Shown: positions 3,559 to 63,109 of the stretch, one piece after another
How positions within the stretch are numbered: position 1 is the first letter of the stretch
How the letters are laid out: the number at the start of each line of letters is the position of its first letter
Assembly: GCA_030390025.1 (NCBI GenBank)
Contig: CM059438.1
Span: 73,284,001-73,348,000 of the forward strand
Direction of reading: 5' to 3'
Origin: Squalus acanthias
Taxonomy: Eukaryota
DNA: 64,000 nt
The notes under the pieces: model-generated
The model's database searches: none
The model's input: the letters and a program-made list of their open reading frames with translations, nothing else
Told to the model about the DNA's origin: nothing
Translations under genes and position numbers: made by a program

Positions 3559-4377
3559 GGCCAGAATTTTCCCCTAAAAAAAAAAGGGTGGGTTTGGAGC
3601 GTGGGGGCAGTTGAAGTGTTAAAAATGGGGATTCCCGACCTGATCCCGCCCACTTCCGGTTTTACCGGAGGTGGGACGGATGGGGGGGGCGACCAACCGG
3701 CTCCCAGGGAGCATTAGCTCAATTTAAATATCATAATGAGGCTGGAAGCCCTTTTTCCCCCCCCTCTCTATTTTGTGTTTAACTGCATGGGGATGGGTTT
3801 CACATAATTCGTGAAACCCGGCAGTTAAACAGAGGCGGCAACTGCTGCATCCGGGAGGTAAGTGGCTTTATACCTACCTCTTGGATCCAGGGTCCCGACC
3901 ATACCCACCCCCCATGATCTGAGACCGCCCCCGTCCCCCACCCCCCCGGCCTCCGATTACCTTCCCAGGCCTCCCCCCAACAATGATGATGAGGCCAGCC
4001 CCGATCCTCTCTCCACCCCGCCCCCCAATCCCCAGCCGACCCTCCCCCGCGATCCACAGCCGACACCCCTCTCCCGATCCCCGAACCCTGCAGATGCTCT
4101 CTCCCCCACCCCGCTCTCCCAATCCCCGACCCCTGCAGATGCTCTCTCCCCCACCCCCCTCTCCCAATCCCCGACCCCTGCCGATTGCCGATCCTCCTCC
4201 CCCGAACCGGCCCCTCACTTCTGAGGCCTACCCGCCCGCAGCCAGCCAGCCTCTCAATCTGGCTGGCTGTGGGCGGGAATCCAAGGCCTCACATTCAAAT
4301 CAGGCCCTGGCGGTAAAGTTGGCAGGGCCTGCGGGAAACCCGGCCCTCAACCCGCCTACCTGGGGAAAATTCCAGCC
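3559..4377. mobile_element. GC-rich MITE-like element
   Basis: TIRs GGCCAGAATTTTCCCC / GGGGAAAATTCCAGCC. Confidence 0.7.
4060..4185. repeat. 45-bp tandem repeat (about 2.8 copies) inside the MITE
   Basis: Unit ctctcccaatccccgacccctgcagatgctctctcccccaccccc; 15-aa period in ORF 3862..4224. Confidence 0.85.
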
Positions 4378-6370: not shown

Positions 6371-6456
6371 GATAGTGATGCACAAGGCATTGCAGTTGTG
6401 TGGGCCAGGCTGGATGGACCAATGGGTCTCTTTCTGTCCATCATTGTCCTATGAAT

Positions 6457-6552
6457 TAAAAACAGAAAATGCTGCAAATACTCAGCAGGTCAGGCAGCAT
6501 CTGCAGAGAGAGAAACAGAGTCAACGCTTCAGGTCGATGACCCTTTGTCAGA
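6457..6552 (-). mobile_element. Penelope-like terminal fragment, single arm, degenerate hammerhead
   Basis: Same sequence as the arms of the palindromic copies; 14-bp TSD attgtcctatgaat / attgtcctattaat. Confidence 0.75.
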
Positions 6553-9479
6553 ATTGTCCTATTAATGTTTTTTTATGTATATACAGATCATATTCCAAGG
6601 GTTTTTAAAATCTGTACAGTACAAGACAAAATACACATAGTTGAACTTGTTTTTAATAAATACTGAACTAAAAAAAATGGGTTGAAAATTGCAGTATCTT
6701 ACTGAACTGTTGAAATGTTATCTTTATTGACTTCTGGTTAATTCTATGAAAACAATCGAAGGTAGCTACACATTTAAGCATGGTGCATTTACCCACGGAA
6801 CCATCCAGGGAGCTCCCTCAGCATATCGTGTCATATTCACCTCAAAATATACTAACTGAGATATTAGATTATTGGCAGTCATCATTTTGCCGACATTGAG
6901 CAATTTTATTTTCCCCTCCCCAAATTCTGTCCCTTCTTCCCTCAAAGGCACTGACTCTTGCATGATGACAGCAACGTTTTAGCACCTCACCCATTCTTCA
7001 CGTATGAGTTTAGCAAGCAAGTGGTGGTGGGATATTCAACTGTGAAGGGCATCAGAGCCAACCTGATACTATCTTCACCTCAGGTCCGGGTGTGCATAAT
7101 TTCCAGAAAGGCTCACTGGATCGGGAACTGATGATCTTTCCCTTCTCGAATTCCAGGGGCACGGAAGCCGGTTGTACCACTCCTATCATCCACCCAACTG
7201 AGATGAACTAACTCAATGCAGATCGGGGATCAATCCTGGGACCATACTGTTCTTTAGGGTTCAACTATGTACTGCCATAACCAGATGAGCTATTGGGAGA
7301 ATCAATCCTTTTTTTTTAATTCAAGACAAAATCTACAAAAGGGCAGATTTGTTTTGGTTAAGCCAAAATTTAATCAAAAAAACAGTTTGTAACACAACTA
7401 ACCAAAAGCACACTCAATGCCATTGACACCTTTGTATAATGGGACTGAGGTCATATATAAGGACACTGGAATAACATGAGCAATTCTGCATCTCATCTAA
7501 ATAAAAAATGTCCTCCAAGTTTTATACAATTAAATCTAATGTATATCTTAGCAAACAAAACAGGTACTCAATAAAAAATATATATTTTAAACTGAGACTT
7601 GGGAAAGCTCTGCAATATTCAAAAGTCACAGTTTGCCATGTAACATATTGTAGGACCTTTTTATGTTGACCAAGCTCAGTGTCACAAAACAACTGATCAA
7701 ATGGCACAGCAGGAGGAGGATTTTTCCAGCCTTCAGCACCATAAAGAGAACTGCCCTGGCTATGCCCAAACTTTCTTTTGATAAAGAATTGGATAATATA
7801 AAATATTATTCGAGTAACAGTAATGCAGCAGCACAAAATAACTAAATGCAAACAAAATTGTGGTAAGTGGGGGGGGGGGAAACACAAATTTTCAAAATAC
7901 AATTCATTGTCAATTGTCATGAATAATGAGCTATTGACATAAATAGTAACCTTTAGGAATGTTGAAACAGATTCTAATTCAAAGTCAGATATATTCCAAA
8001 TTTAAATCTAAAGGGTCTTTAGGAAACTATGGCCATCAAATGACACCCTGGGATACTAGTGTACAACAAATGCTTAACACATTCATCTTAAATTTCGATC
8101 TCTGCTATTTTAGCAGAGACGTTAGCCCATTTAAAATAACAGGGTACCATTTCTACTGAAACAGGTAGAGGTATTTTGCTTGAATAAATTGGTTGAGTGA
8201 TGCCCAAGCTAGTACCTTGAGCCATTCCCAGCCCTCGAACCCTCGTGGTCCTGGCTTGAAGCCCAGGAAACTCCGATCTATTTGTGTTTATAATTCTTAC
8301 TCATTGGTTTGTCCTGTTTGAATTGTGGGGGCCTGGAGTTCTTAGTGTGTTTGTCTCATTGGAGGATAAGTCCTATATCAGGAAACCTAAATTGGTTAGT
8401 ATCCACAGCTTGATATATGTGCAAATTAATGGGAACACGGATTTAGGCTTCATATGTGGCCGACAAGGATCCATGATATACACAAAGACATACAGCTTGC
8501 ACACTACTGTCATAAGTATTCCACAGCATAATTTCAAGGTTACTTCCGAGCAATAAATCTCACCCGCTCTCTCACTCAGTAGGAAAAATCTCTTTCTTAG
8601 TATGATATGCAGAGTGTTGGGCAACAATTCTCTCACACTGAATATGGATAACCTGTTTGATCGCAATGTCTGAAGCCCTAATGTAAGCTTTGCAGTGGCT
8701 TCAAAGCAGAACAGAAAGATCTTCAGAAAAACTCTTTTACTGGTATCAGTTTTCAAAATTTGTATCAAATTTTTGTGTTCTGAACAGCAAATATGCATCC
8801 TGTATCTTTAAAGTACTATATGAAGTTTAGATTTGCATTTTAATGCCAGTGTCTACCTTGAACTTTTAGCTGCTTCAAGCAGATACTATCTTTACAAGGG
8901 TATTTTTGGAAAGTCACTCACTCTGAGCCCTGCCCCTGAGTGGCAGAAATGCAGCCTCCTCATGGGGCACTGTGAATTCTCAGCAGCTGGCACACCTGGT
9001 GCCAGGAGCCAGGTGTGTCTTTGGCCTCTGATTTTCCTTCTGCCCCCTACTGGGAGACTCGGCCACAACCATGGTACAAGTAGAACAAATACTGTGGCCG
9101 GACAGGTAGCAGTCTCGTATCAGGATTCAGGACATACTTGCCACTTCCGGACCTGTATCTCATTTTCTATATGCTCAGGTTTATCATTAATGTATCCAAC
9201 AGGACTCTACATGTGTCATGCACAAATGCCCGAGAGCAACATGAAGAATTCAGTTGTAATAACTTTATTTTTAGAATCCTGGCAGATAGTTTACTTTAAG
9301 GCATTACTCTGCTAATTAGATTGAGTTTACATTGTCATTTAAACATTGGCAAACACTTCTGTGTCCACCTACTGAATTTAACCAGCTTAGCAATCTGCAA
9401 ATGTCTTCAGAATCTTTTGTGATTGAAAAAAAATGCTGAACATCATTTGAGAGGGAACACTGGATGAATAATCCAGAGA

Positions 9480-20479: not shown

Positions 20480-21237
20480 GGCCCAGAAATTTGACTCGGA
20501 GGCTTGCCGCGGGGGTAAGGATCTTGCGCGATATCGCACTCCGCGCCGGCCGTTGTGTTTTGGGTCCACAGGAACTTCTGGTCCTGGGCCTCTCCTTGGT
20601 GCCGGCGCGCAGTGTGTGCGTGCCCCAGAGGCGCAGTTAGTTCGATGCGACCTCTGGGATCACGTGGGCCATGGAGAGCCAATGGCAGCACACCATCTTT
20701 CATTCATAGATTTGACAGGAGAACTGTCAAAACTATGAATACAAATTGCCCCCAAAAGAACAGCTAAACCTCAAATAAATTTTAAAAAACCATCACATTA
20801 ATAAAATAACTATAGTTAAATAAATTAACCACTTTAAACAAAAATTTAAATTTTTGAAAAAATTTAAATTCTTTTTAAAAGTTATAAAAATAAACTTACC
20901 TTTCTTTAAAGTCTCTAAAAAAGATAAACCTGTTGAAAAAAATTTAAAATACTTAATTAACTACTTACCTTGTTAAAAGGGGGTCTTACGCCTCCTTTCT
21001 TCATGTGTAAAATCTTCAATACTTACCTTCGCGTTGAAACTTGAAAAAAACCTAAGTGTGCTGCATGCGCACAGCCTGTAGTGCGCACGTGGTTCACTTA
21101 GGAACCGCCCCCTTCACCATACCCGAAGTGCCGGTTTCCCGCGCATGCGCAGTGCTTGCAGGAAACCGGCACTTCGGGACCGAATACGCGAGAGTACACA
21201 GTTCGTACTCTCCATTATTCGGCCGAATTTTTGGGCC
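20480..21237. mobile_element. PIF/Harbinger-like MITE, 3-bp TSD AAG
   Basis: TIRs GGCCCAGAAATTTG / CGAATTTTTGGGCC; GC-rich hairpin ends, AT-rich core. Confidence 0.8.
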
Positions 21238-22496: not shown

Positions 22497-23318
22497 ATTA
22501 CATGAAGGATATATTAGCCTTGGAGGGAGTGCAGCGTAGGTTTACCAGAATAGAACATAAGAACATAAGAAATAGGAGCAGGAGTAGGCCCCTCGAGCCT
22601 GCTCCGCCATTCAATAAGATCATGGCTGATCTGATCTTGGCCTCAACTCCACTTTCCTGCACTATCCCCCCATAACCCTTGACTCCCCTCTAGTTCAAAT
22701 ATCTGTCTATCTTAGCCTTGAATATATTCACCGACTCAGCCTCCAAAGCTCTCTGGGGTAGAGAATTCCAAAGGTTCACGACCCTCAGAGAAGAAATTCC
22801 TCCTCATCTCCGTTTTAAATGGCGACCCCTTATTCTGAAACTATGCCCCTAGAATGATACCTGGACTCCAAGGGTTAAATTACGAGGAGAGATTACACAA
22901 ATTAGAGTTGTATTCCCTAGAATTTAGAAGGTTAAGGGGTGATCTGATCAAAGTTTTCAAGATATTAATTGAAACAGATAGGGTAGATGGAGAGAAACTA
23001 TTTCCGCTGGTTGGGGAGTCTAGCACTCTGGGGCATAGTCTAAAAATTAGAGCCAGACCTTTCAGAAGTGAAATTAGGAAACACTTCTATGCAAAAAGGG
23101 TGGTAAAAGTTTGGAACTCTCTTCTGCAAATGGCAATTGATGCTAGATCAGTTGTTAATTTTACATTTGAGATTGATAGATTTTTGTTAACCAAAGGTAT
23201 TAAGGGATATGGGCCAAAGGCGGGTATATGGAGCTAGGTCGCAAATCAGCCATGATCTCATTGATTGGCGGAACAGGCTCGAGGGGCGCAATGGCCTACT
23301 CCTGTTCCTATGTTCCTA
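22497..23318 (+). mobile_element. CR1 LINE 3' end interrupted by a nested inverted CR1
   Basis: KDILALEGVQRRFTR before the insert continues as MIPGLQGLNYEERL (ORF 22854..23237). Confidence 0.9.
22552..22850 (-). mobile_element. CR1 3' end inserted antisense into another CR1
   Basis: (gaacataa)n tail and CR1 3' UTR on the minus strand; AGAAT on both sides. Confidence 0.88.
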
Positions 23319-23650
23319 TTTAGAACAGTACAGCTCATGAATGTCTCTGTGCTAACTCTTTCTTACCTGTGCTACAAATTGTATATATTGGGCATCCACC
23401 ATAGCAGGAATTGAGAATTGAGCAGGTCAATAAGCAAGATTTGTCCAGCTGAAACGGGTTCAACAGCTACATAAATTCTGCACAGTTTACATATAGAAAT
23501 GGTGAAACTTTCCCTCATAGGTAGCAAACAACTCCTTTGTGATGTATGCTCACTTTTACATGGTGTATACTGTATACTGTATATTACTGTATCTAGAACT
23601 CAGACTACACCTAAATAAATGCTTTAGTAAATAACCTCATGGAAACTTAC

Positions 23651-24487
23651 TTCACTTTATGGTTCCGTCGTTCTCGTAGAACAGTCTCTCCCTCCTTTTC
23701 ACCGTTCTCCCTCTTCTCCTCTGACTCGTAGGTTGTGAGTGCCTTCTGTCTATGCCTGCGTCGTCTTTCTGCTCCCTCTGCGTTTTGACTTCGACTGGAT
23801 ACGTCTCCCTCTCGATTTCCTGATCGTGACCCATCTTTGGCACGTGTACGCCTTTCACTCTTTGTGCCGTTGACTGTGCCATTTCCTTCCTTGGACTGCT
23901 GGTCTGTCACGTGCCGGTGAGACCGATGGCGCCTGTATTCCTTTTCAGTCGCCTCGTCAACAGAGCTCTGCAGGTGGTGGTGATGCCTCCTCCCTCCTTC
24001 TCGACTTCTGCTTCGCTCGCCCTTTCCCTCCTTACCCTTTTCTTCCTGGTCTCTCTCAATTTCTTTGCTCCTGCTCCTGTGGGAGCGCCGTTGTTCATCC
24101 TTGCTGTTAGCCCCAGATTCTCCATTGTCAATCGTGCCATCTCCCTTCTCGTGCTCGCTTGATTTGTCTCGATGTCGATGGTGCCGTTTTGGTGCCTCAC
24201 AGCTCTCGGGCTGAACCAGCCTTTCATGCTCGCTATCTTGGCAGTCATTTGGACGGATTTTATCAGTGCTGTTCCTTATGTCATTCCTGGGTTCCACTAC
24301 CAAAGGTCGATCCAAGTGGGTTTTCATATCTGGCCGGATCTGATGGGACGAGACATACATTCGACGCTGCTCATCATCGAGTTCATTAAACAGTGCCTCT
24401 TGACTAGTTAGTAGGTGCTGTCGCCTTAGCTGAGTAGTCCTTTGTTCCCAAATGGACATTGACTTGAATGACTTCTGTTGATCTTTG
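23651..24487 (-). CDS. CACNA1B: CACNA1B exon 19 (II-III loop, synprint region): KDQQKSFKSMSIWEQRTTQLRRQ...RPDMKTHLDRPLVVEP...RERRNHKV
   Basis: ttatag| acceptor, |gtaagt donor, 837 nt; ORF 23647..24459 with the Cav2 motif RPDMKTHLDRPLVV. Confidence 0.95.
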
Positions 24488-26963
24488 CTATAAATAACAA
24501 ATAACAGAAATGTAGCATAAAGCTGTATTTTTCAGGAAATTCATACAGAAATGTTATTCACCTTAAATCTCCACCGACTTGAAAATTTAACCACACACAA
24601 TATTTAAACAACAGGTGAAAACAACAGAATGTCATTTTAGTCAAAAGTATTCCTCAGATCAAATGGAAAATCTACCCTTTTAAACCGAGACTAGATGAAA
24701 GTCACCTAGATGTTGTTGTTGCGCTGAAGCATGCATTCTCCATAATCCTACTGCAGTCATCCTTGCCAAAAATAAAGATCAGCACCACAAGCAAATGCCA
24801 TCCATTTTCAGATGTAACAACATGTCATTTGTTGGGTGCTATCATCAAGCAGCGGCACAGCTCCTTAGTAAATGTGAACACGTGAAGGTAAGTTCTGATT
24901 CTGTGCTTGCATTAAAGGAGAACTTTCTTTTTGAACAAGAAAAAGAACTAAAATTTCAAAAGAAGAAAATAACCGAGAACAGCAAAACGTAAACGAGTAC
25001 AAAACTCCTCATGTAAACCAAAACCCAAGGTGTGCTGTTGTGCAGTATCAGTCAGGCTTGTCACTAAGATTAGCAGTCTAAAATCCTTCGACTGAATATC
25101 AGAAGCACAGAATCACACTTGCTACAAACAGTGAACGGAAACAGACGCGCACACACAAAAAAAATACTCCAAATGGTACAAACAAACATATATTTTTTTA
25201 AAAGCTGGATAGGAGCATTCAAATGAGACAGTGAAACAACCTCTGGGACATAACCACTCCACTGTACAATGCACACAGATAGTTTCAGCTGAAAAGTAAC
25301 ACTTTCACCATCTGAAACATAATGGTCATGACTGCCTACCATTTTATCGCTCCAAGTAAGTGAACAAATGAACCAATAATTTGGTATTATTATTAAAAAA
25401 GGAATAAAATCTTTGATTTATGCTTATTTTAGGCATTATTTTGCAGCATTTTACTGTCCTTTGCAGTAGAGTAATTATCATTGAAATGATCCAAGCAGAA
25501 CCTAGATTTTTTAAACAAAACAGCTCTGAATAAATAGAAAATGTGTTTCCTGTTCAGTTTTGTCACAACTGACTGCTATTTAATTAAAGACTTCAGTGCC
25601 TATATTTTAGCATCTGCAATCTGTTTTCTGAAGTAATTATAATTTCCAAAATATTAAAAGGCAGCACAATATTTTTTAAAAATCCATTGCACTGCTAGAA
25701 TTGCTCATATGCTTTGTTTTTTTATTTCAATAAAATCAACTGGTGAGGCGTCAAATGCTACACTTTCGCCTGCAAGATTCTGATCAGCGAGGCGTTACCG
25801 ATATACGACAAAATTAAATGAAACAGTGGGAATTTTTTCCAAGTGCGTACTTGTAAAACATTGGGGCTATGCAAGCAGGCCATGTAATATTGTATGTGCA
25901 CCTACAGCATTTGTTTTGAATTCCTTTGTCCACTATATTAACAGAGGCATTAACCCATTTAAAATCAACAAAGCCAGCCAAATATTCGGACAGCAACATC
26001 GCACAATATCAGTTCCAGGCCCCTATTTTCCTACTGTACAGCAAAAACTGGCAGGAATAAAATCAAACATGGGCAAAGGTCCTGAACAGTGCATTATTGT
26101 AAGATTCATTTATTTTATGTGATTCATTTCTTCCAATACATGTGTTTTACAGTTACCTTGGAGAACTGAATTTCCCCTTCATAAAATATCTTTGAATTTA
26201 ACAACACGTTAAATTAAGAACTGCAGCTAATTGAAGGGCCTAAATAATATCCGGATCCTTATTGCTGAAGTTGTATAAATGTCACAATCATAGTTTTACA
26301 GAACTATAAAATAAAAATCCACGTGTCATCGAACACGTTACACAATGGTGACTAAAATGGACTGAAGGTTTTAACCGCCAGTTGTAAATGGGTATCATTT
26401 GAGGAAGCTATGGACTGTATATCATTGGCTAACATAGGAATAATACAATTCTGTAGTATTTTAAACTTAGTTCAGAGTTTATAAATCATGAAGATTTTAA
26501 AGGCAAGCAGACATCAGATGAATTAGAAATACTTTTTGGGATCATTAACACACTTCATTTTGAAAGAAAGAGAGGGTCAATTATTTCTAATTGATTTTGA
26601 CAGACAGCTATTCTATTTGTTTGCGTGTAATTTTATTGTGGCTTTAATTAGACAATGTGATGGAATAAGGATTGCTATTATCCATGTTTGGATGACATGA
26701 AATTTAGACTTTCTTGCTCAAGTTGATATGTTATTTGATTCAGTGTAGAAAGGTCAAAGGAACATAATAAAGTGCCAACAAATTGAAATGCACAGAAGCC
26801 ACCAATGACAGTGAATGTAGTGGACAAAAAGAGTTGTCCAAACAGTAGGAAGAGCACAGCCACTGCATGTTTACAACATCCGCTCTTCACACTTGGTGTT
26901 ACAATGGTGAATGACACTTTCTGAAGGGGTTACTGTATAATATTGTAACAGAGAGCAACTCAC

Positions 26964-34787: not shown

Positions 34788-35136
34788 AATGTTTACTGTT
34801 TACGAATCCGTTCAATGTAAATGCAGCACTTGTTGGTTCAGAGCCTGAATCTCAGTCTGCTTTTCGAAGGGAAGAGAATGATGTAGCACATTCCAGTTGC
34901 TGGTGCACAGAGTAAAGTTTCGCTGTTGTGGTCCTTGGGTCTTGTGATTGTTTGCCTAGATATTGGGCAGAAAAAAAGATGTACTTGGATTGTTGGGGAT
35001 CCCAGATCCATTTACAGGAGTGGCCGGTGACACTGAACCCGAGAAAATATCTCATGTAAAAGCCCAAAAATATGACGATCTCACTGAAAGATACAGATCT
35101 GAGATCATTGTTAAAATCGTCAATAATAATTATAAT

Positions 35137-35776
35137 TCGTAGCGAGAGGGTTTGAGTACAGGAACAAGGATGTCTTGCTGCAGTTGTACAGGGCCTTGGT
35201 GAGACCACATCTTGAGTATTGTGTGCAGTTTTGGTCGCCTTATCTGAGGAAGGAGGTTCTTGCCATGGAAGGAGTTCAGCGAAGATTCACCAGGCTGATA
35301 CCTGGGATGGCAGGAATGACGTATGAGGAGAGATTGGGTCGATTGGGCTTATACTCGCTGGAGTTTAGAAGAATGAGAGGGGATCTCATTGAAACTTATA
35401 AAATTCTGACAGGACTGGACAGACTAGATGCAGGAAGGATGTTCCCGATGGTCGGGGAGTCCAGAACCAGTGGTCACAGTCTAAGGATAAGGGGTAAGCC
35501 ATTTAGGACAGAAATGAGGAGGAATTTCTTCACCCAGAGGGTGGTGAACCTGTGGAATTCTCTACCACAGAAGGCAGTAGAGGCCAATTCATTAAATATA
35601 TTCAAGAAGGAGTTGGATATATTTCTTAAGGCTAAAGGGATCAAGGGATATGGGGAGAAAGCAGGGACAGGGTTCTGAATTTGGATGATCAGCCATGATC
35701 GCATTGAATGGCGGAGCAGGCTCGAGGGGCCGAATGGCCTACTCCTGCTCCTATCTTCTATGTTTCTATGTTTCTA
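35137..35776 (+). mobile_element. CR1 LINE 3' end, young (open frame retained)
   Basis: ORF 35175..35678 LYRALVRPHLEYCVQFWSPY...; (tctatgtt)n tail. Confidence 0.94.
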
Positions 35777-36555
35777 TAAGATTGCATTGCCTCACTAATG
35801 CACTGTACATGATATAAGAGCTGACCATGACTTGGCAATTTGTATTAAACCATTGCATACAGGTGTTTAAATACCACAAAAAATTATCTTAACTCTCTCG
35901 TAACGTATGTTTGTCTATGTACAGGATTTTGTTTTTGCATGAGAGAAGCACGTGTGTGGTTTTATCAGACCCTGGCTGCAACCCTCTTCCTCTCGCAATG
36001 TACTTTTTCGATTATTTTCTTCTCGCCCCTCCTTCACGAAGTGACTTATGGTAGGGTATAGTTCAGCAAGCTCTGCGGTTTCCCACGCAAGTAGACGTTC
36101 TTTGCATGTGAGCATCGGCAGGCTTTTCAACGTCAAAATTGGCCCTGATCCTTTCTTCATTTCACAGCGTCGCTTTCTGGCAGAAATCCCTGGATAGCGA
36201 TCAGGAGCAGGAACCGCGGCTGATGTTTTCCGTTCCTAACCCGGGAGCGCTGTGGCCATTCGTAGTGTCCCTCCCCTCTCCCTCAGCACCAAGCCATCAG
36301 GGAGCTCCATGATCGAGTCTAATTAGTAGCTCGACGCTTGATGTTATGAATGCTGTATATCTAGGCTATTGCACATGTTTACTTTCATTATCCGAGTGCA
36401 CTGGTGAGCGTGCAAGACCCAGAAAATTAGTCAAGTCACAAGTGCTCTGGTGGTCATTGCAAGCAGTGGTGTCTACTGTTAATGTTCACTGCAATCTTAT
36501 TGTATGCAACAGCCAATGCACGACTTAAAAGCAGAATAACCTAAAAATAACTTAA

Positions 36556-37113
36556 ACAGAAAATGCTGGAAACACTCAGCAGGTCAGGCAGCATCCGTGG
36601 AGAGAGAAAGAGAGTTAACGTTTCAGGTCTGTGACCAATGTCAGAACTGGAAAAAGTTAGAGATTTAACAGATTTGAAAACCAGGTGCAGGGGCAGGGAA
36701 AGGGGGGGGGAGGGGAGGAAAGAACAAAAGGGACGGTCTGTGATAGGGTGGAAGGCAGGAGTGGTTAAATGTTGCAATTGGGACTGGCAGAATCATCAAC
36801 AGCTGTCGCCTGAAAAAAATAGGGGCAGAGGTTATGGTCTGAAATTGTTGAACTTGATGTTGAGTCCAAAGGGCTGTAAAGCGAGTAATCGAAAGATGTG
36901 CTGTTCCTCGAGCTTACGTTAAGCTTTGTTGGAACAGTGTAAGAGGCCGAGAACACTGTTCCAATGAAGCTCAACATCGAGTTCTGACGAAGGGTCACAG
37001 ACCTGAAACGTTAACTCTGTTTCTCTCTCCACGGATGCTGTCTGGCCTAGCTGAGTGTTTCCAGCATTTTCTGTTTTTGTTTCGGATTCCAGCGTCCGCA
37101 GTATTTTGCTATT
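36556..37113. mobile_element. Penelope-like inverted-repeat insertion with hammerhead motif
   Basis: Inverted arms; 15-bp TSD ctaaaaataacttaa / ctaaaaagaacttaa. Confidence 0.8.
36979..37017 (+). ncRNA. Minimal type I hammerhead ribozyme motif
   Basis: GAGUU-CUGACGA-A-GGGUC-ACA-GACCU-GAAAC-GUU-AACUC: intact core, stems I and II pair. Confidence 0.65.
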
Positions 37114-37161
37114 CTAAAAAGAACTTAATTCACTCAATAAAACGCATGTTTTTTTTTTTAC

Positions 37162-38369: not shown

Positions 38370-38625
38370 TATCCTTTTTCAGGACCTCAAAATTATGCAA
38401 TACTTTTAGCCTCTGTCAGTCTCCCCAAACTCCGACAATGTACAGGTTTTGAAATCCCAAGCGTGATATCCTCTCCCCACTATTTCTTGATCAATTTCAT
38501 TTTCTCTCCTTTCCTTTCCAATCTTGCTGGCATCTTGCACTACAGGCCTTTGCCTTTCATTTCGGTTTCTCAATAATAATAAAAAATTATAGTTTAAAAT
38601 TCGTCTTGTACTGGAGTGCGACTTA

Positions 38626-38760
<135 letters not shown>

Positions 38761-39650
38761 TTAAAAACACAGATCAATCATTTTACCAAAACAGCCACAA
38801 CAGCACCTTATCTGATAATGAGCAATTCTTAAATAAAGCTAGTCCATCCTTTTCTGTGACTTCAATCTTAAAATCACATTCTTTGTAAGACTTTACACTT
38901 TGAAGAAAATTAAAATCATTTTAATAAGATTTGAATGAGTTACTGGATGAATATTGATCAAATTAGTATGTTGAGCATTTATTGACACGTGTGACATACT
39001 TCGAACTGGTTGAAATAATGCATATTGATGTGTAAGTATTTAGTGAAATAGGATGATTGTAGTTAATAAGTGTGCGAAAATTGTATATTGAGGAACTTCT
39101 ATTAATGGAGGTTTCACACTAGCAAGGTGGACTTTTCTTCACATAAAAGTTCAATGAACTTAAAGACAGTCAAAGCATAAAATGGATAAAATGGCTTCAC
39201 AATTGGGAAGAGTTGGAAACTCAAATGAATGCTGCAAGACAATGAAGCACTTGAGGCTTAAGTTCTAATTGTAAATAAGTAAGCAGAAAAGCTCATATCT
39301 CGCATAGTCATAGAGGTACTTGAATAATAGAACAAACCAGTGATTACCAAAAACTGATGAGTTTCAATGTGTTGTAAGGTTGAATGGACAGGAATTACAA
39401 AAGGAAAAGTTTGCAGGGCTGTGGGACTAATTAGGTAGCGCATTCAAAGAGCTGACACAGGCACAATGGGCCGAATGGCTTCCATCAATGCTGTAAGATT
39501 CTATGATTCAAAGTGCTGCAAGACACTGCAGTTGTTTTAGGAGCTTAGTGAGAGGGTGTCCTGTTACCTGGTTTGAAAAATGGCCGACTACAAACATCAC
39601 ATTATAGTAAAAGACATTTTACGTAGTAGCAGCAGTTAAAATGTGGGTTA

Positions 39651-40101
39651 AGAACATAAGAAATAAGAGCAGGAGTAGGCCATACAGCCCCTCGAGCCTG
39701 CTCCGCCTTTCAATAAGATCATGGCTGATCATCGACCTCAACTCTACTGTCCCGCCCGATCTCCATATCCCTTGATTCCACTAGAGTCCAAAAATCTATC
39801 TATCTCAGCCTTGAATATGCTCAAAGACTCAGCATTCACAGCCCTCTGGGGCAGAGAATTCCAAAGATTCACAACCCTCTGAGTGAAGAAATTCCTCCTC
39901 ATCTCAGTCTTAAATGGCCTTCCCCTTATCCTAGTTCTAGACACTCCAGCCAGGGGAAACAGCCTCTCAGCATCGACCCTGTCAATCCCCTTCAAGAATC
40001 TTGTATGTTTCAATGAGATCACCTCTCATTCTTCTAAACTCCAGAGAGTATAGGCCCATTCTACACAATCTCTCATCATAGGACAGCCCTCTCATCCCAG
40101 G
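39651..40101 (-). mobile_element. CR1 LINE 3' end
   Basis: ORF 39744..40022; aagaacataagaaa tail. Confidence 0.92.
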
Positions 40102-41167: not shown

Positions 41168-41230
41168 TTACTGAGCTCTGGACATTAATATTTCCATTGT
41201 CTGCATGCAATCACGCAACCTCAATCTTAC

Positions 41231-41343
41231 CCCAAAATCAAAACAGTTGAATGAGGAATGGAAGTAATTTCTTGGCCCCAAACCAAACATCTTCAAGGTC
41301 ATCTCAGTCAGAAAAAGTCCAAGGAAAACAAACTCAGCAAAAT
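41231..41343 (-). CDS. CACNA1B: CACNA1B exon 12 (IIS2): [38 protein letters not shown]
   Basis: tttcag| acceptor, |gtaag donor, 113 nt. Confidence 0.95.
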
Positions 41344-41997
41344 CTGAAACAAAAATAAGTTATTTAAAATGTATCATCGCACATAATAGACATCTTACAT
41401 AACTGACATGTTAACAGCTCATCAGAAAAACAGTTTGTAACCATTTGCTTAAGTATGAGGACTACTAAGTTTATGCACATCGGCTTCCAACGCCACAGAA
41501 TCAAAAAACTTTACAGCACAGAAGGTGGCCATTCAGCCTACTGTATCGGTGTCGTCTATCTGCTACAGCAATCCAAGCTAATCCTATTTCCATACTCTCT
41601 CCCTGTTGCCTGTATCCTCCTCTGCTTCAACTGTTTATCTGTTTTACCCTTGAAAGATGCAATAGTCTCTACTTCAACTATTCCATGCTCTAACAACCTT
41701 CTGCATAAAGAAGTTTGTCCTAATCTCTCTCGTTATCTTTACATTTATAAATTAGGAGTAACAAAAAGAAAGAAAATCAAGAGGAATATAGAAAGTATTG
41801 TGGGAAGGTGTAACGGGAGATCAGAAGGGCTAAAATGGAATCAGAAAAAAGGCTAGCACAAAATATAAAAAAGGCAAGTGTAAGGGCATTCATAAGGATA
41901 TATGAAGTATAAGAATAGTTAAAGAGAAGAAAGGACCACTCAGGAATGGAGGAGGGAGGAGTCTAACTGTGGCCGAGCAAGATATAGCAGAGATATT

Positions 41998-42767: not shown

Positions 42768-43205
42768 ATTGAATGAATATTTTGCATCAGATTTTACACA
42801 TGATTGTTAGTGGTAACTGTAGAAAATGAATTCGCTCTGAAAAAGTTGTCAGAATTCAAGGTGGATAAAGTCACTGGGCCCATTGGCTGTTGAAAGAAGT
42901 CAGAAGGGAGATAACAGAGGCTTTTGCCATAAGTTGCCATTCTCTTCAAATGGGCAAATTTGCACCACTGGACTGGAGAGTAGCCAAGAAGGTAGAGGAA
43001 GATAAGCAGGATAATCAGAGAACAATTAATCTAACTTCAGTTGTGGGAAAACTCGTGGAATCTATCATGCAGGATAAAAGTAGTGAGCATTTAGAAATGC
43101 ATAGGTATAATAGCAAAATACTGCGGATGTTGGAAATCTGACATAACAACAGAAAATGCTGGAAAAACTCAGCAGGCCAGGCAGCATCCGTGGAGAGAGA
43201 AACAG

Positions 43206-43242
43206 AGTTAACGTTTCAGGTCTGGGACCCTTCATCAGAACT
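43206..43242 (-). ncRNA. Minimal hammerhead ribozyme motif, sense to CACNA1B pre-mRNA
   Basis: AGUU-CUGAUGA-A-GGGUC-CCA-GACCU-GAAAC-GUU-AACU. Confidence 0.65.
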
Positions 43243-43465
43243 GGAAAAAGCTGGAGATGTAACAGATATTGAGCAGGTGCAGAGACAGGGAGGGGAGGAA
43301 GGAATTGAAGGAATATACTGTGCTTTTGTAAGTGCCTCTTACAAAAGCACAGTATATTCCTTCAATTCCTTCGCCTCTTACAAAAGCACAGTATGTTCCT
43401 TCAGTTCCTTCCTCCCTCCCTGTCTCTGCACCTGCTTAATATCTGTTACATCTCCAGCTTTTTCC

Positions 43466-43502
43466 AGTTCTGATGAAGGGTCCCAGACCTGAAACGTTAA
43501 CT
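43466..43502 (+). ncRNA. Minimal hammerhead ribozyme motif (mirror copy)
   Basis: Same sequence on the plus strand. Confidence 0.65.
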
Positions 43503-44294
43503 CTGTTTCTCTCTCCACGGATGCTGCCTGGCCTGCTGAGTGTGTCCAGTGTTTTCTGTTGGAAATGCATAGGTAATCAACGACAGCCAGCATGAATTTG
43601 TTAATCACTTCTTTTTTGAAGAAGTGATCAAGTGGATAGATAAAGCTGATGCAGTGGTTGCTAAATTATGTTGGGGTATCGTCCATAGCTCCAAATGCCG
43701 TGATACATCGCTCAGGTAGCCATTTTTCACATATGAGCCTAGATAGTGAGCACCAGCAACCTATTAGATCAGGGAGGACATCATAATTGAGTCTAATCCT
43801 ATCCTTACCTGATGTCCAAACACATGAACTTTCCTGCAGCAGTCAATGGATCACAATTGGGAGCAAGAGCTCCTGGTCAGTATAGCTCAGTTCTACCATG
43901 CACAGTGTTTGTAATAACTGAGAAATCAGCAGAGCCCATCACATTTGCGCTATGCTTCCTGCTCTTTTGGGAAGAATCTTGGCCTGATCATGTTCCCAGT
44001 TTAAGAAACTGTCTCAAGTGAGGCAAATTACTGTATATGGTTGCAAAACAGTGTCCTATATTGACGGGATTAAAATTTTGCAAACTAGTTCCATGGGTAA
44101 CGCATCCTATTTAGGATAAGTCTTGTTGAGAAATCAGATCGAGTCAGCAGGGACAACAAGAAGGGAGAGGAGGACAAGGAATGCGGCCGCTCCCATAGGA
44201 AGAAGCATTATGCGGCAAATTTTCTATTTGGCAGCAGCAGATGACTTGACAAGCAAATTCTTGACAAAGAATTTTATTTGTAAGTTATTCATAG

Positions 44295-52470: not shown

Positions 52471-54268
52471 TGAAGCAATGACTTATAAATATATGGGGGA
52501 TGATGTCCACATCCTGAAATGTACCTTCATTATGATAATGATGTCCTTCTCTATCCACCTCAGATATTTTTTCATTCCTCATTGCCTGTTGCTCACAACC
52601 CTTCATCTACAAAAGGACGGGTTGGTCTGAGTCGTCAGTGCCAGTTGCTTGCAGCTGGCAATCAGCTTGAATTTAAGTATTAAGTAGAATATAGTTGTCT
52701 CTCCACATCCCCTATTGAAATGCTTTGCTTCTGTACCACATTCTATTGAGTAGCCAGGCTGAAAATGGAAAATATTCACCTGACCGAGGTATACTGATTT
52801 GAGTTACAGGCAGCCTGCGACTCAAACCCACGACTGTCAGACTATGAGAAACTGGTGTAGTCTCTGGACTACCAGGCTATCTCTATCTATTTCAGTGAGA
52901 TATGGGCTGCTATTAAAATAACACTTGCAGATCAATAGTTTTTGGCTTGCGGTATAAAGAAAGCTTACAAAGTGATTTCTTGGACGCTGTGGAGGGCACT
53001 GTGGGTTACCAACGGGATCACTGCCAAAGTCAAGGCTGGAAAATGTATTTCGGGCAGACCCACCAAGCATCTGGCAGTGTCTAAACATCCAGGTCCTCGG
53101 GTATTAACCTGAAGCCCATCCGGCCTTGCAACGGTGCTTCTCTACCACTTGCTCTGTCAGCACGCTGGTTCACACGTGCTCACAGAATCCCTTTGTGTGC
53201 CATTCTCACAGACATTACCCATTTAAATAGATTGGGTAACAACTCTGTTAAAATAACAGACATAGCAATTCTATATGAAGTTAGCCACTGTGCTACAGGA
53301 GATGAAATCCCTCTGAGTTTATTTAAAAACAACCACTCCTTCTAGTGCTCCCATGTGTTAACTGAACAAGTGATTCTTCTACAGCCTGGCTAACGGTAAG
53401 TTGGAGGATACATGGTTTTAAGATGACAGATGCATGTATTGTTCTGTTGCTGAGGTGAAGCCCTGTCACTTAAAGGCCACAAAATCGAATTGCTGTAAAT
53501 ACGATCGAGATTAATTAGATGCCATTCTCTGAAGCCCATAAAAAGCTGCAGGAAGTCACTGGCTTTCTTTCACTTTGGTTTTGTAGGGATAGATTGCATC
53601 GATCACAAACTTTGACGTATGAAGTGCGGCCTATATAGATACACACACAAATCCCACTTTCCCTGAAAATAGCAATTCCCCAAGATAAACGTTAAAGCAA
53701 TGCAACTGACTGATTTAGTAATAGCACCAGTAGAGATTGGACAATGTGCATTAATTATGGGCAACAACACAATACAAAGGCTTGTATTTCATTTCTCACA
53801 ACATGGAGTGTAGTGGCAGATAAGGGATATGGTGCTGGATCAAATGACTTATTAAATAATAATACAACGAAACGGATCTAATTTGTGGTAAATTTTACAT
53901 TTAATAATACTTAAATAAGTTTAAAAAACTGGTTCTGTTAAGATATGCGACAGTGTGTTTATGTGGTCAACAGATGGCATTTAATTTTAGAGAAAATCCA
54001 ATGAAAAAGGTTATTTTTTTTTTTGTCAGAGCAATTGAAGGCTAAAATTTTTCTCCCGCATGGCCACATCATAGCCTGCTTAGCTGTTCTGTTCTGCCAC
54101 ACCCGAATCTCGCCTTCCCTCTGAGAGCAACCCACTCAGACTTTCTTTGTTAATCCAGACTCAACGTGGCATGATCCACATTCCCCCGTCTTCTGAGTTC
54201 AGCCAGGGACCCAGTACATGGAAATTAAACACGAAGAATGAATTTAAATAAAAGAATAAAGAAAGGCT

Positions 54269-54521
54269 AATACAAAAGCAAAACACTGTGGATGCTGGAA
54301 ATCTGAAATAAAACCAGAAAATGCTGGAAATACTCAGCAGGTCAGACAGCATCCGTAGAGAGAGAAACAGAGTTAACGTTTCAGGTCAATGACCCTTTGT
54401 CAGATGACCCCCCCAACTAAAGTTCTGACGAAGAAGGGTCATCGACCTGAAACGTTAACTCGGTTTCTCTCTCTACAGCTGCTGCCTGACCTGCTGAGTA
54501 TTTCCAGCATTTTCTGTTTTT
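54269..54521. mobile_element. Penelope-like inverted-repeat insertion
   Basis: Perfect 14-bp TSD AATAAAGAAAGGCT; both hammerhead cores altered. Confidence 0.82.
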
Positions 54522-55228
54522 AATAAAGAAAGGCTGCTTTAGAAGAAAATACAGAGCGATAATCCGAAGGAGGAAACGATGAGAAAAGAGAAAGCAGCAA
54601 AGCAAATTCAGAAGGTAAAGGAAAAACACAAAATGAGAGGGTTGGAACAGTGCGTTTGACAGGCATAGAGAAAGCTATAAATACAGAAAAAAGATCAAAC
54701 AGAAACATGCTTAAACTGTATTACAAGCTTACACAGAGAGTGAAAAACATACACGAGAGTGCAGACGGAGGAAGGACAACATTATAGAAAGAGGAAGACA
54801 GGCAGACAGAGGTGACAAGAGAAAGTATCTCAGAGCCATATAAAGAAAAAGGAAATATTAGTCGAACACAGGCTGTTCTTAGCAATTCAATCAATAAAGC
54901 TACACACAACACTTCAGTAATCAATCATTTTCTGTAGTGTTTACAGATGCCTCAAGGACAGTGAGTGCAAGGCCTCTGCCACCTTCTCCCCGACCCTGCC
55001 CCTCCATCACCAATGGATTTCTTGACTAATAGGAATAAAATCTGGTCAAAATGGACAGTTCTGCTCTTAGTCTTAAAAAGAACATGGCAAAGATAGAAAA
55101 ATATTTTAAACTCCACATCTTCCTGCAACTTTCTGGCAGCAAAATGTCTTTAAATATAAGGCTCACCGAGGACATCGCAACCCCCCAACTAAACTTAAAC
55201 GAGAAGGGCTTCAAGGGATATTACTCAC

Positions 55229-60560: not shown

Positions 60561-61145
60561 AACATAACATAAGAAATAGGAGCAGGAATAGGCCACTTGG
60601 CCCCTCGAGCCTGCTCCGCCATTCAATAAGATCATGGCTGATCTAGGGCTCAAAGCCACTTCCCAGCCCGCTCCCCATAACCCTTCACTCCCTTATCTTG
60701 CAAAAATCTGTCTATCTCCACCTGAAATGTATTTAATGACCCAGCCTCCACAGCTCTCTGGGACAGAGAATTCCACAGATTTACGACCCTCTGAGAGAAG
60801 AAATTCCTCCTCATCTCAGTTCTAAAAGGGCGACCCTTTATTCTGAAACTGTGCCCCCGCATTCTAGATTTCCCCACGAGGGGAAACATCCTCTCTGCAT
60901 CTACCTTGTCGAGCCCCCTCAGTATCTTAGATGTTTCAATAAGATCACCTTTCATTCTTCTAAATTCCAATGAGTATAGGCCCAGCCTGCTCAACCTTTC
61001 CTCATAAGTCAACCCCCTCATCTCTGGAATTAACCTAGTGAATCGTCTCTGAACTGCCTCCAATGCAAGTATATCCTTCCTTAAATAAGGAGACCAAAAC
61101 TGTACGCAGTACTCAAGGTGCGGTCTCACCAATACCCTGTACAGC
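60561..61145 (-). mobile_element. CR1 LINE 3' end, young
   Basis: ORF 60650..61147; aacataacataagaaa tail. Confidence 0.94.
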
Positions 61146-61325
61146 ATGCTGTAAACTTAAGACCAGCATATCATCACAGGGCGATGGACAAAAAGAAACC
61201 AAAAGAATTGGCCACTAAGATTCCTATAGACAATATGTGATACTACAATAATGATTTTATAGTTGCAGAATTACACATTTTCTCAGAGAAACAAACATGC
61301 CAACTTTTGATCTTGACAAGCTTAC

Positions 61326-61441: not shown

Positions 61442-61534
61442 CTGCAAGATAAAAAGAGAACTTTCCTTGCTTTGTACTACAAAAATGAGTAAGAGTAATA
61501 CTGTACATTGTAAAACAAACTATGAGAAATAATT

Positions 61535-61779
61535 AAAAAGCAAAATACTGCGGATGCTGGAAACCTGAAATCTTATCAGAAAATGCTGGAAATACTCAGC
61601 AGGTCAGGCAGCATCTGTGGAGAGAGAAAGAGAGTTAACGTTTCAGGTCGATGACCTTTCGTCAGACCTGGATGAGTTCCGTTCTGACGAAGGGTCATCG
61701 ACCTGAAGCGTTGACTCTGTTTCTCTCTCCACAGATGCTGCCTGACCTGCTGAGTATTTCAACATTTTCTGTTTTTATG
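61535..61779. mobile_element. Penelope-like inverted-repeat insertion about 95 nt upstream of the exon 8 acceptor
   Basis: 13-bp TSD atgagaaataatt / atgagagataatt; left arm keeps CUGACGA..GAAAC on the minus strand. Confidence 0.82.
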
Positions 61780-63109
61780 ATGAGAGATAATTGTCGTGTT
61801 TCAGGATTTTTTGACCATTTGTCCACAGAAAGATTGCTTTTAATGTTCGGTTCCAGTTAAAAAAAAGGCTGAGTCAATAAGTAGTTAAGATGCTAATGTG
61901 CTAGCTTTGATGATGTTTCCCCAATAGACTGTAATTACGTAATTTGTCAGCCTTTCTTGGCAGTCGAAAAAGTACCTCACACCCCTTGCATTGGAAAGCA
62001 TTAGATCATTTTTTATCTGTGAACAGAGTGAAACAAGATTTTGACTGGGACATAGGCTGGCAGACAGGCTGTGTGAAACAGGATGCTGTGCAGGTAGTCA
62101 GGCTTTTGCAGAAACAAAGAGGTCAGAATTGTTGGAAGAATAGTTAGAAATGATCTTTTTTAAGCCAAGTAAAACAACCCACTGATGTGGGGAAGCATGC
62201 ATGTTCTTTATTTTCTATCACTACTCAAAGATAAGTTGGACTGTTTGAACGAAATGAGTTCAATCATAACTGCCATTCTGTATGTCCACTTTAATGTGAA
62301 ATAAAGTAGCATATCAATTCGTATCAGGCCTCAGCTTGTTGCACCTTCAGAAAGATTGAAAGAGCATTCTTGGGAAAGACACAACATCCTGGAAGCGGGT
62401 GCTATTGTTACGTACCAAATTTCCAACAGTAGTGCTCAAGAATACTTTCTCCAAATGATCTAATGTTATTTTAATTTTAATGAGAATATTGTACATCAAT
62501 CATGGAAATAAGAGGAAAAGATACAGAGAAGGTACGAAGCATAAGGTAACATTTTTGGGGGAGCTGGATTGCTCGTGAGATTGATTAGCTGATTTTGAGA
62601 GTTTCAGTCCCAGCACTGCCAGTCACCTCAACTGGTCTAACTTTATTAGTAAAGTATTTATCTATTGCCAGTTACGCCGTTAGATAGGGAAGTATGTGGA
62701 AAGGAGTGCGCTGTATTACTGTATATCTGACAATCAAAAAGTAGTGTTGGTCACACAACACTGGCAGTCACTACAGGGAATCATTTAACACTTCTCACTG
62801 AAGAAGGATAAATGACGGTAATTGGTGCCAGCACGGTAAATGGGGAAATAAAAAGCTTCAGGTTTTAAAAAAAGACAACATACTAATAAAAAGTAACATC
62901 TAAGTACTTTTGCATCCTGCCTTTTTGGAGAATTTTAATCACTTTTAGTGATTTTCTGCAGGTTGGTTGAGCTGGGAATTTTATTGCATTGCTTGATGGC
63001 AGAAAGTACAAAAGAATCAGATACTGAGCAAGTTAAAATGTGGTGGACTGTCCTCCTGATGGACCATAACAATGTGGACAAATCCTAATCTCAGAAGAGC
63101 ACTCCCATA

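Follow-up and report, generated by a model that had tools for sequence, protein, structure and literature searches.

The 64,000-nucleotide stretch of the Squalus acanthias genome analyzed here (the window) carries exons of CACNA1B, the gene for Cav2.2, and five short insertions, each bordered by a target-site duplication (TSD) (Table 1). The CACNA1B exons lie on the minus strand; thus the pre-mRNA corresponds to the minus strand, and the hammerhead motif in the minus-strand arm of the insertion at 43108 is in sense. All five insertions described in an earlier note on this DNA are present, with TSDs of 13-15 nt, and four of the five are inverted, as had been claimed, their arms standing head-to-head with the 3′ ends outward, while the insertion at 6457 is a single arm. 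The insertion at 43108 interrupts a fragment of a dispersed LINE-like repeat. A paralogous copy of this repeat is continuous across the site and holds the duplicated 14 nt only once, and the TSD is therefore real. Among the pieces listed from other species there was no contig orthologous to this insertion, the flank of which is a repeat. Truncated LINE-like copies in both orientations, with open frames for the C-terminal part of a reverse transcriptase, also lie at 2080-2593, 22558-23329, 35136-35780, 39649-40101, and 60562-61156; we take these to be CR1/L2-like. A small GC-rich hairpin, a weak match to a miRNA model (E 0.29), lies at 21124-21176, and a 45-nt tandem repeat in three copies at 4060-4194.

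Table 1. Features of the window. Element positions (signed numbers) are counted from the C of CUGA.
Feature	Position	Strand	Remarks
6457 insertion, TSD	6443-6456 / 6553-6566		14 nt, 1 mismatch
6457 insertion, solo tail-less arm	6457..6552	-	decayed hammerhead core; 5′ end between -1 and -5
Open frame with CACNA1B (Cav2.2) II-III linker exon	23647..24531	-	human Cav2.2 alpha-1B, E 3.6e-37; Cav2.1 next, 8.4e-27
36556 insertion (36556..37113), TSD	36541-36555 / 37114-37128		15 nt, 1 mismatch
36556 insertion, tail-less arm	36556-36947	-	reaches -293
36556 insertion, short sense piece of ORF end	36953-36979		upstream of tail arm
36556 insertion, tail arm	36980-37113	+	from -4
Intact hammerhead motif	36980-37016	+
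Ion_trans exons	38494-38766, 41228-41428	-	also on both sides of the window
43108 insertion, TSD	43094-43107 / 43562-43575	+	14 nt, exact
43108 insertion, tail-bearing arm	43108..43332	-	element about -105 to +132; sense in CACNA1B pre-mRNA
43108 insertion, tail of about 35 nt	43108..43142	-	this arm only; tail as defined in PMC11167929
Intact minimal type I hammerhead motif	43206-43242	-	sense in pre-mRNA
43108 insertion, tail-less arm	43333..43561	+	ends at about +91; opens with duplicated piece 43338-43372
Intact hammerhead motif	43466-43502	+	antisense to pre-mRNA
54269 insertion (54269..54521), TSD	54255-54268 / 54522-54535		14 nt, exact
54269 insertion, tail arm	54269-54404	-	from -1; then 16-nt filler
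54269 insertion, tail-less arm	54421-54521	+	from -4
Hammerhead with 3-nt insertion	54421-54460	+
61535 insertion (61535..61779), TSD	61522-61534 / 61780-61792		13 nt, 1 mismatch
61535 insertion, tail arm	61535-61666	-	from -1; then 14-nt filler
Hammerhead, intact core	61633-61669	-	3 of 4 stem I pairs
61535 insertion, tail-less arm	61681-61779	+	from -3

A genome search with one arm as query returned copies that extend much further 5′, are contiguous with the arm sequence, and translate to reverse transcriptase (RT) and GIY-YIG motifs, and these partner copies bear out the Penelope-like origin that had been proposed for the insertions. One such copy (L043) has a 607-aa open frame in which a C-x4-C-x2-C linker separates a match to RVT_1 (27.8 bits, E 2.4e-6) from one to GIY-YIG (18.6 bits, E 0.0023). 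Neither match reaches its Pfam cut-off. The frame also has a DKG motif, and a search of the PDB with the protein of the element gave no match at E<=1. A CX2-5CxxC linker is described as a mark of Neptune and Nematis (PMC8557442), and the element appears to be of Neptune type, an assignment that rests on the Cys linker motif shared with Nematis. In 18 of 30 loci taken at the 5′ part of the ORF, the hammerhead lies in direct orientation just before the ORF body, and another copy (L199) has no interruption of the frame across hammerhead and tail over the 260 residues printed. Thus, the arm is both the 3′ pseudo-LTR of the element and the start of its ORF, an arrangement also known from Anolis (PMC11167929). 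There is a gradation of arm lengths up to copies with an ORF, and the window pieces are the 5′-truncated ends of an abundant EN+ Penelope-like element (PLE). One palindrome of at least 5.2 kb (L048, G000:C9:126270800-126278300), with arms of about 2.6 kb or more that are 96% identical, covers most of the ORF. Just upstream of the hammerhead, from about -45 to -3 (for example, 43241-43285 on the minus strand of the window), the element carries a branch-point-like site, a pyrimidine tract, and CAG directly before stem I, a stretch that every subfamily retains although the remaining sequence has diverged. This stretch resembles a 3′ splice site, comparable to that of the Drosophila virilis Penelope intron, and would also fit an initiator at -4; a spliced form was not observed.

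We carried out a census of arms over 1.464 Mb, consisting of 464 kb around the window and ten arbitrary 100-kb blocks on ten other contigs, with positions counted from the C of CUGA and the predicted cut after +28. It found 123 arms, of which 105 were kept; one was dropped as a fragment, and 17 because they matched the long-copy library at less than 88% identity. In the same sequence, a strict motif scan gave 66 hammerhead matches against 0, 0, and 0 in three mononucleotide shuffles, and the motif is thus far above chance. Scan and inspection confirm a minimal type I hammerhead with a palindromic stem III, comprising the CUGANGA and GAAA cores, the extra nucleotide, stem II, an NUH site, and stem I. 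The motif is intact in 35 of the 61 census arms that reach it and, as the earlier note had stated, it is found in the window in both intact and decayed forms: apart from the motifs listed in Table 1, the four remaining arms have a mutated core. In a check against Rfam that the note had suggested, none of the 13 matches at E<=5 was to a hammerhead family; the minimal motif as published is not defined by Rfam membership.

More than a third of the scan matches (27/66) belong to a second minimal-hammerhead family, distinct in its stems and in its stem III palindrome (examples are L052:5787-5823(-), L066:9811-9847(+), L064:3938-3975(-), L054:9081-9153, and L187:1621-1734), which also makes short opposite-strand pairs and is likely another Penelope-like family. 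Relative to the first, this family swaps pairs in all three stems and keeps the core. Two-sided change is seen in 7 of 11 stem pairs of a 14-row alignment (14 of 39 distinct sequences), a count that compares two families only and uses rows picked by a scan that demands pairing; within the family, variation consists of one-sided changes and loop changes only. In folding of the monomer and the self-dimer, the lowest-energy folds mispair the core (-7.3 vs. -5.9 kcal/mol for the hammerhead fold), in models that are blind to dimer activity. In addition, two loci on one contig (L031 and L040, both C26) form a segmental duplicate in which some 3.9 kb, element plus flank, is 96% identical; they differ in the stem II and loop variants of the 3′ arm, possibly through gene conversion.

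The earlier note had proposed that the Cav2.2 pre-mRNA carries an intact sense hammerhead masked by its own antisense arm, and that the palindrome at 43108 could be a self-masking intronic ribozyme or an ADAR substrate. Strand and motif both confirm the sense hammerhead, the cut of which, by the hammerhead consensus, would presumably fall between 43210 and 43209. The masking is borne out as a folding prediction: the 454-nt minus-strand RNA of the palindrome is predicted to form one near-perfect hairpin of roughly 200 bp in which the whole motif is paired (-355 kcal/mol, z -40.8). In transcription the antisense arm comes before the sense motif, which is therefore predicted to pair as soon as it emerges, and no cleavage is expected. 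Long intronic duplexes are, moreover, typical ADAR substrates. However, in any head-to-head stump such masking is given by the layout alone and does not need selection. The census blocks outside the contig of the window, 1.0 Mb in all, contain 64 arms, and the independent palindromes there number 13. Of the 10 solo arms in the portion of CACNA1B that was sampled, 7 lie in sense, two of them with an intact, unmasked motif. Minimal hammerheads of this kind, in addition, are reported to lack cleavage as monomers and to show low cleavage as dimers (PMC4209133), or to need the protein of the element (PMC11167929). A role in Cav2.2 expression, for which these data offer no support, therefore seems to us highly improbable, and RNA editing of the hairpin, if any, would be incidental.

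What the palindromes do record is a strict asymmetry between their arms. In the census, 3′ ends cluster at +87 to +102 and at +122 to +136, the latter including the tail, with a few at +45 to +60. There are thus two fixed 3′ end points about 37 nt apart, and every independent palindrome has one end of each kind. From 31 neighboring minus/plus pairs, 27 were kept as independent, including the four window insertions that prompted the analysis; two were set aside because they lack a TSD and two as copies of one older insertion. Exactly one tail is present in all 27 independent head-to-head pairs (P = 7e-9 against 0.5); among solo arms the tail is present in 21 of 50. Before the two copies of the older insertion were dropped, the rule was obeyed in 28 of 29 pairs, the sole exception being one of those two, and of the pairs without a TSD one would obey it and the other (arms 23/24) has two tails. 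TSDs of at least 10 nt flank 24 of the 27 independent pairs, with lengths of 11-17 across the census. The longer arm is the tail-less one in 16 pairs and the tail-bearing one in 6, with 5 unresolved. A third 3′ end, at about +46, is seen in arms 30, 40, 88, 115, and 117 (e.g., G000:C14:73134208-73134265), always on the tail-less arm when paired, and is possibly a third RT start site.

The arms of a pair mostly share private variants (0/169 and 1/319 differences in two pairs). One TSD-flanked palindrome (arms 37/38; L087:8515-8750 region; G000:C14:73252515-73252748) consists instead of arms of two different subfamilies, with 6 non-CpG differences in 101 nt, while each arm has a copy elsewhere with 2; gene conversion could also account for this pair. 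Junctions carry microhomology or filler and differ among the 27 independent pairs, except for one recurrent microhomology in two of them (39/40 and 67/68), which are independent and are joined at the same 6-nt complementarity, -8 to -3 with +19 to +24.

We consider it likely that the five window pieces are 5′-truncated insertions of a Neptune-type PLE and that each palindrome was built anew by reverse transcription, with priming from both nicked strands of its target. The enzyme would nick the two target strands 13-15 nt apart. Synthesis from one nick would begin at about +95 or sometimes +46, the tail-less start, and synthesis from the other at about +133, where the tail starts; in most cases RNA of one source copy would serve for both. 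The two cDNAs would then be joined at their growing ends via microhomology or filler. Early synthesis would often stop in or just upstream of the hammerhead, giving rise to short palindromes, and the hammerhead would be a passenger in the insertion. Purified Anolis protein is reported to nick and extend both strands, with two start sites that bound the tail, and is predicted to be a dimer that does not need hammerhead cleavage (PMC11167929).

A different origin, fold-back or self-priming, was put forward in PMC3846280 on the basis of palindromes observed at inverted junctions. Here, the cDNA or antisense template would loop at a short inverted repeat and copy itself, with an endonuclease later trimming one arm, and the tail has been attributed to endonuclease resolution (PMC8557442). 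The private variants that arms usually share are in keeping with this model, as are the common internal complementarity of pairs 39/40 and 67/68 and the duplicated piece at 43338-43372, which mirrors the end of the tail-bearing arm including the variants of that arm. Against two-strand priming as the sole reading, shared private variants fit fold-back, later gene conversion, or one RNA source equally well. However, a first cDNA that lacks the tail cannot, by looping onto itself, serve as template for one, and thus the 16 of 22 resolved pairs in which the tail-less arm is the longer favor two-strand priming; fold-back fails there unless trimming follows. The pair with arms of two subfamilies, the filler rather than a loop at several junctions, and the agreement of the tail with two in vitro RT start sites (PMC11167929) argue in the same direction, and we regard fold-back as unlikely to explain the palindromes.

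The insertions might also be copies of a non-autonomous mini-element, retrozyme- or MITE-like, that propagates itself as a short palindrome, as would befit the "family" of short palindromic elements of the earlier note. Short copies are very many, arm starts cluster at -10 to 0, and hammerhead-bearing non-autonomous PLE derivatives do exist (10.64898/2026.07.22.740005). One palindrome was, moreover, found three times (arms 21/22 on C12, 73/74 on C15, and 81/82 on C2), but these three share their flanks, and this short palindrome was therefore carried along inside another dispersed repeat. Each site has its own arm lengths, junction, and TSD, so the designation as a family does not hold, and among the 27 pairs, which vary in arm length, junction, and subfamily, the same ends and junction were not found at unrelated sites as they would be for a SINE- or MITE-like element. 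The grading of arm lengths into ORF-bearing copies speaks against a discrete mini-element as well. Non-LTR retrozymes resemble the window copies in being non-coding, PLE-derived, and equipped with a type I hammerhead, and in occurring in a cartilaginous fish; in contrast to their head-to-tail tandem units, each with a hammerhead (10.64898/2026.07.22.740005), the window copies are solo or are head-to-head stumps whose junctions differ from case to case. We therefore give a self-propagating mini-element very little credence.

The 5′ ends of the arms are also nonrandom. Of 66 arms that reach position 0, 22 stop within -10 to 0, as opposed to 2 of 44 in -60 to -11 (P = 4e-11 for -10 to +2), and the same is seen for paired arms alone (14/35 at the hammerhead edge vs. 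1/21 upstream; P = 1e-7). A second, weaker cluster lies at +11 to +25 (18/90 arms), a few of which may come from older subfamilies absent from the library. The stop at the hammerhead edge occurs in several subfamilies and in solo arms with an abutting TSD, and it is therefore more than an inversion breakpoint. At the 36556 insertion, the pieces of the ORF end that precede the tail arm (36953-36979) are joined via 5-6-nt microhomologies, which suggests template jumps after a stop at -4; a similar joint (5199 to 5405 of L043) is present in one contig of the RNA joint survey.

Several sources of this pile-up were considered. Hammerhead cleavage is rejected: 0 of 90 arms start at +26 to +29, with one at +32, and thus the pile-up was not made by the ribozyme, in agreement with the cleavage-independence observed in vitro. 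Full-length copies that pass the 5′ hammerhead end within -10 to 0 in 0 of 16 cases (Fisher P = 0.004 vs. 22/66; 20 of 30 loci examined), many of these copies being from one young subfamily. This result disfavors both a plain RNA 5′ end and a plain structural stall, and it weakens the case for a transcription start at -4, a position that we take to fit the initiator-like consensus. Splicing at the pyrimidine tract and CAG before -2, an idea modeled on the D. virilis Penelope intron (PMC4209133, PMC2377424), is unsupported, as the genomic arms share no upstream exon and no GT..AG joint occurs among the joints shown (15/31). The suggestion that RNA structure sets the inversion breakpoint thus stands insofar as arm starts do pile up at the CUGA core, but not for structure as the sole cause, given the full-length copies and the stops in arms without an inversion. 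Our best guess is an abortive early stop at the edge of a protein-bound, structured RNA. More speculatively, and with doubt outweighing confidence, insertion may involve two primers and a dimeric RNP, with one RT start site per nicked strand and with the 5′ edge of the hammerhead as a template boundary in the first 100-140 nt of synthesis only; the hammerhead would then act as a structural stop and not as a cutter. Telomerase, a sister enzyme, is likewise halted by a boundary element.

Much of this architecture has precedents, and the inverted truncated copy, the one-sided tail, the TSD, and the minimal hammerhead are already published (PMC8557442, PMC3846280, PMC4209133). EN+ PLEs of the Neptune/Nematis type, as described in PMC8557442, share with the Squalus element the single ORF of RT, CX2-5CxxC linker, and GIY-YIG, the hammerhead pseudo-LTR, the heavy 5′ truncation and partial tandems, and the inverted 5′-truncated copy with a 30-40-bp tail at one end; there is no difference in kind from that account, although the strict one-tail rule and the 5′ pile-up are counted here. 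The Anolis carolinensis Poseidon element PAc likewise has a hammerhead at the ORF start, two 3′ ends that delimit a tail at roughly 95-133 nt of the ORF, targets rich in A+T, and no sign of ends at the cleavage site. PAc differs in belonging to the Penelope/Poseidon clade, without the Cys linker, and the main text of PMC11167929 is silent on inverted two-armed insertions. As in the metazoan PLE minimal hammerheads of PMC4209133, the Squalus motif has no stable stem III, a palindromic 15.2-16.2, an extra nucleotide before stem II, and a short stem I, but it is another sequence family, with a stem II of 5 bp; in Schistosoma, hammerhead pairs on opposite strands 100-700 bp apart have been described (PMC4209133). 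Pen2a/Pen2 of Adineta vaga show head-to-head inverted pLTRs, a TSD, and an optional tail on one pLTR, with a TSD of 8-10 bp as opposed to 11-17 in the Squalus census. PMC3846280 favors self-priming for these elements, whereas the Squalus counts favor priming from both strands. A literature search, largely without subscription papers and without Repbase, found no count of the one-tail rule or of the 5′ pile-up at the hammerhead.

Collectively, the locus is mostly ordinary; the insertions are real, and their assignment to Penelope-like elements is correct. For CACNA1B itself the 43108 palindrome is unimportant, since a density of 13 palindromes per Mb, roughly extrapolated, implies that such stumps number in the tens of thousands. 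Its value is instead as a record of PLE insertion and as a modest lead on how these elements insert, a process for which the steps after the first cDNA were declared unvalidated in PMC11167929. Sharp predictions for the existing in vitro system follow from the presence of exactly one tail per pair, from the unequal arm lengths, and from the hammerhead stop.
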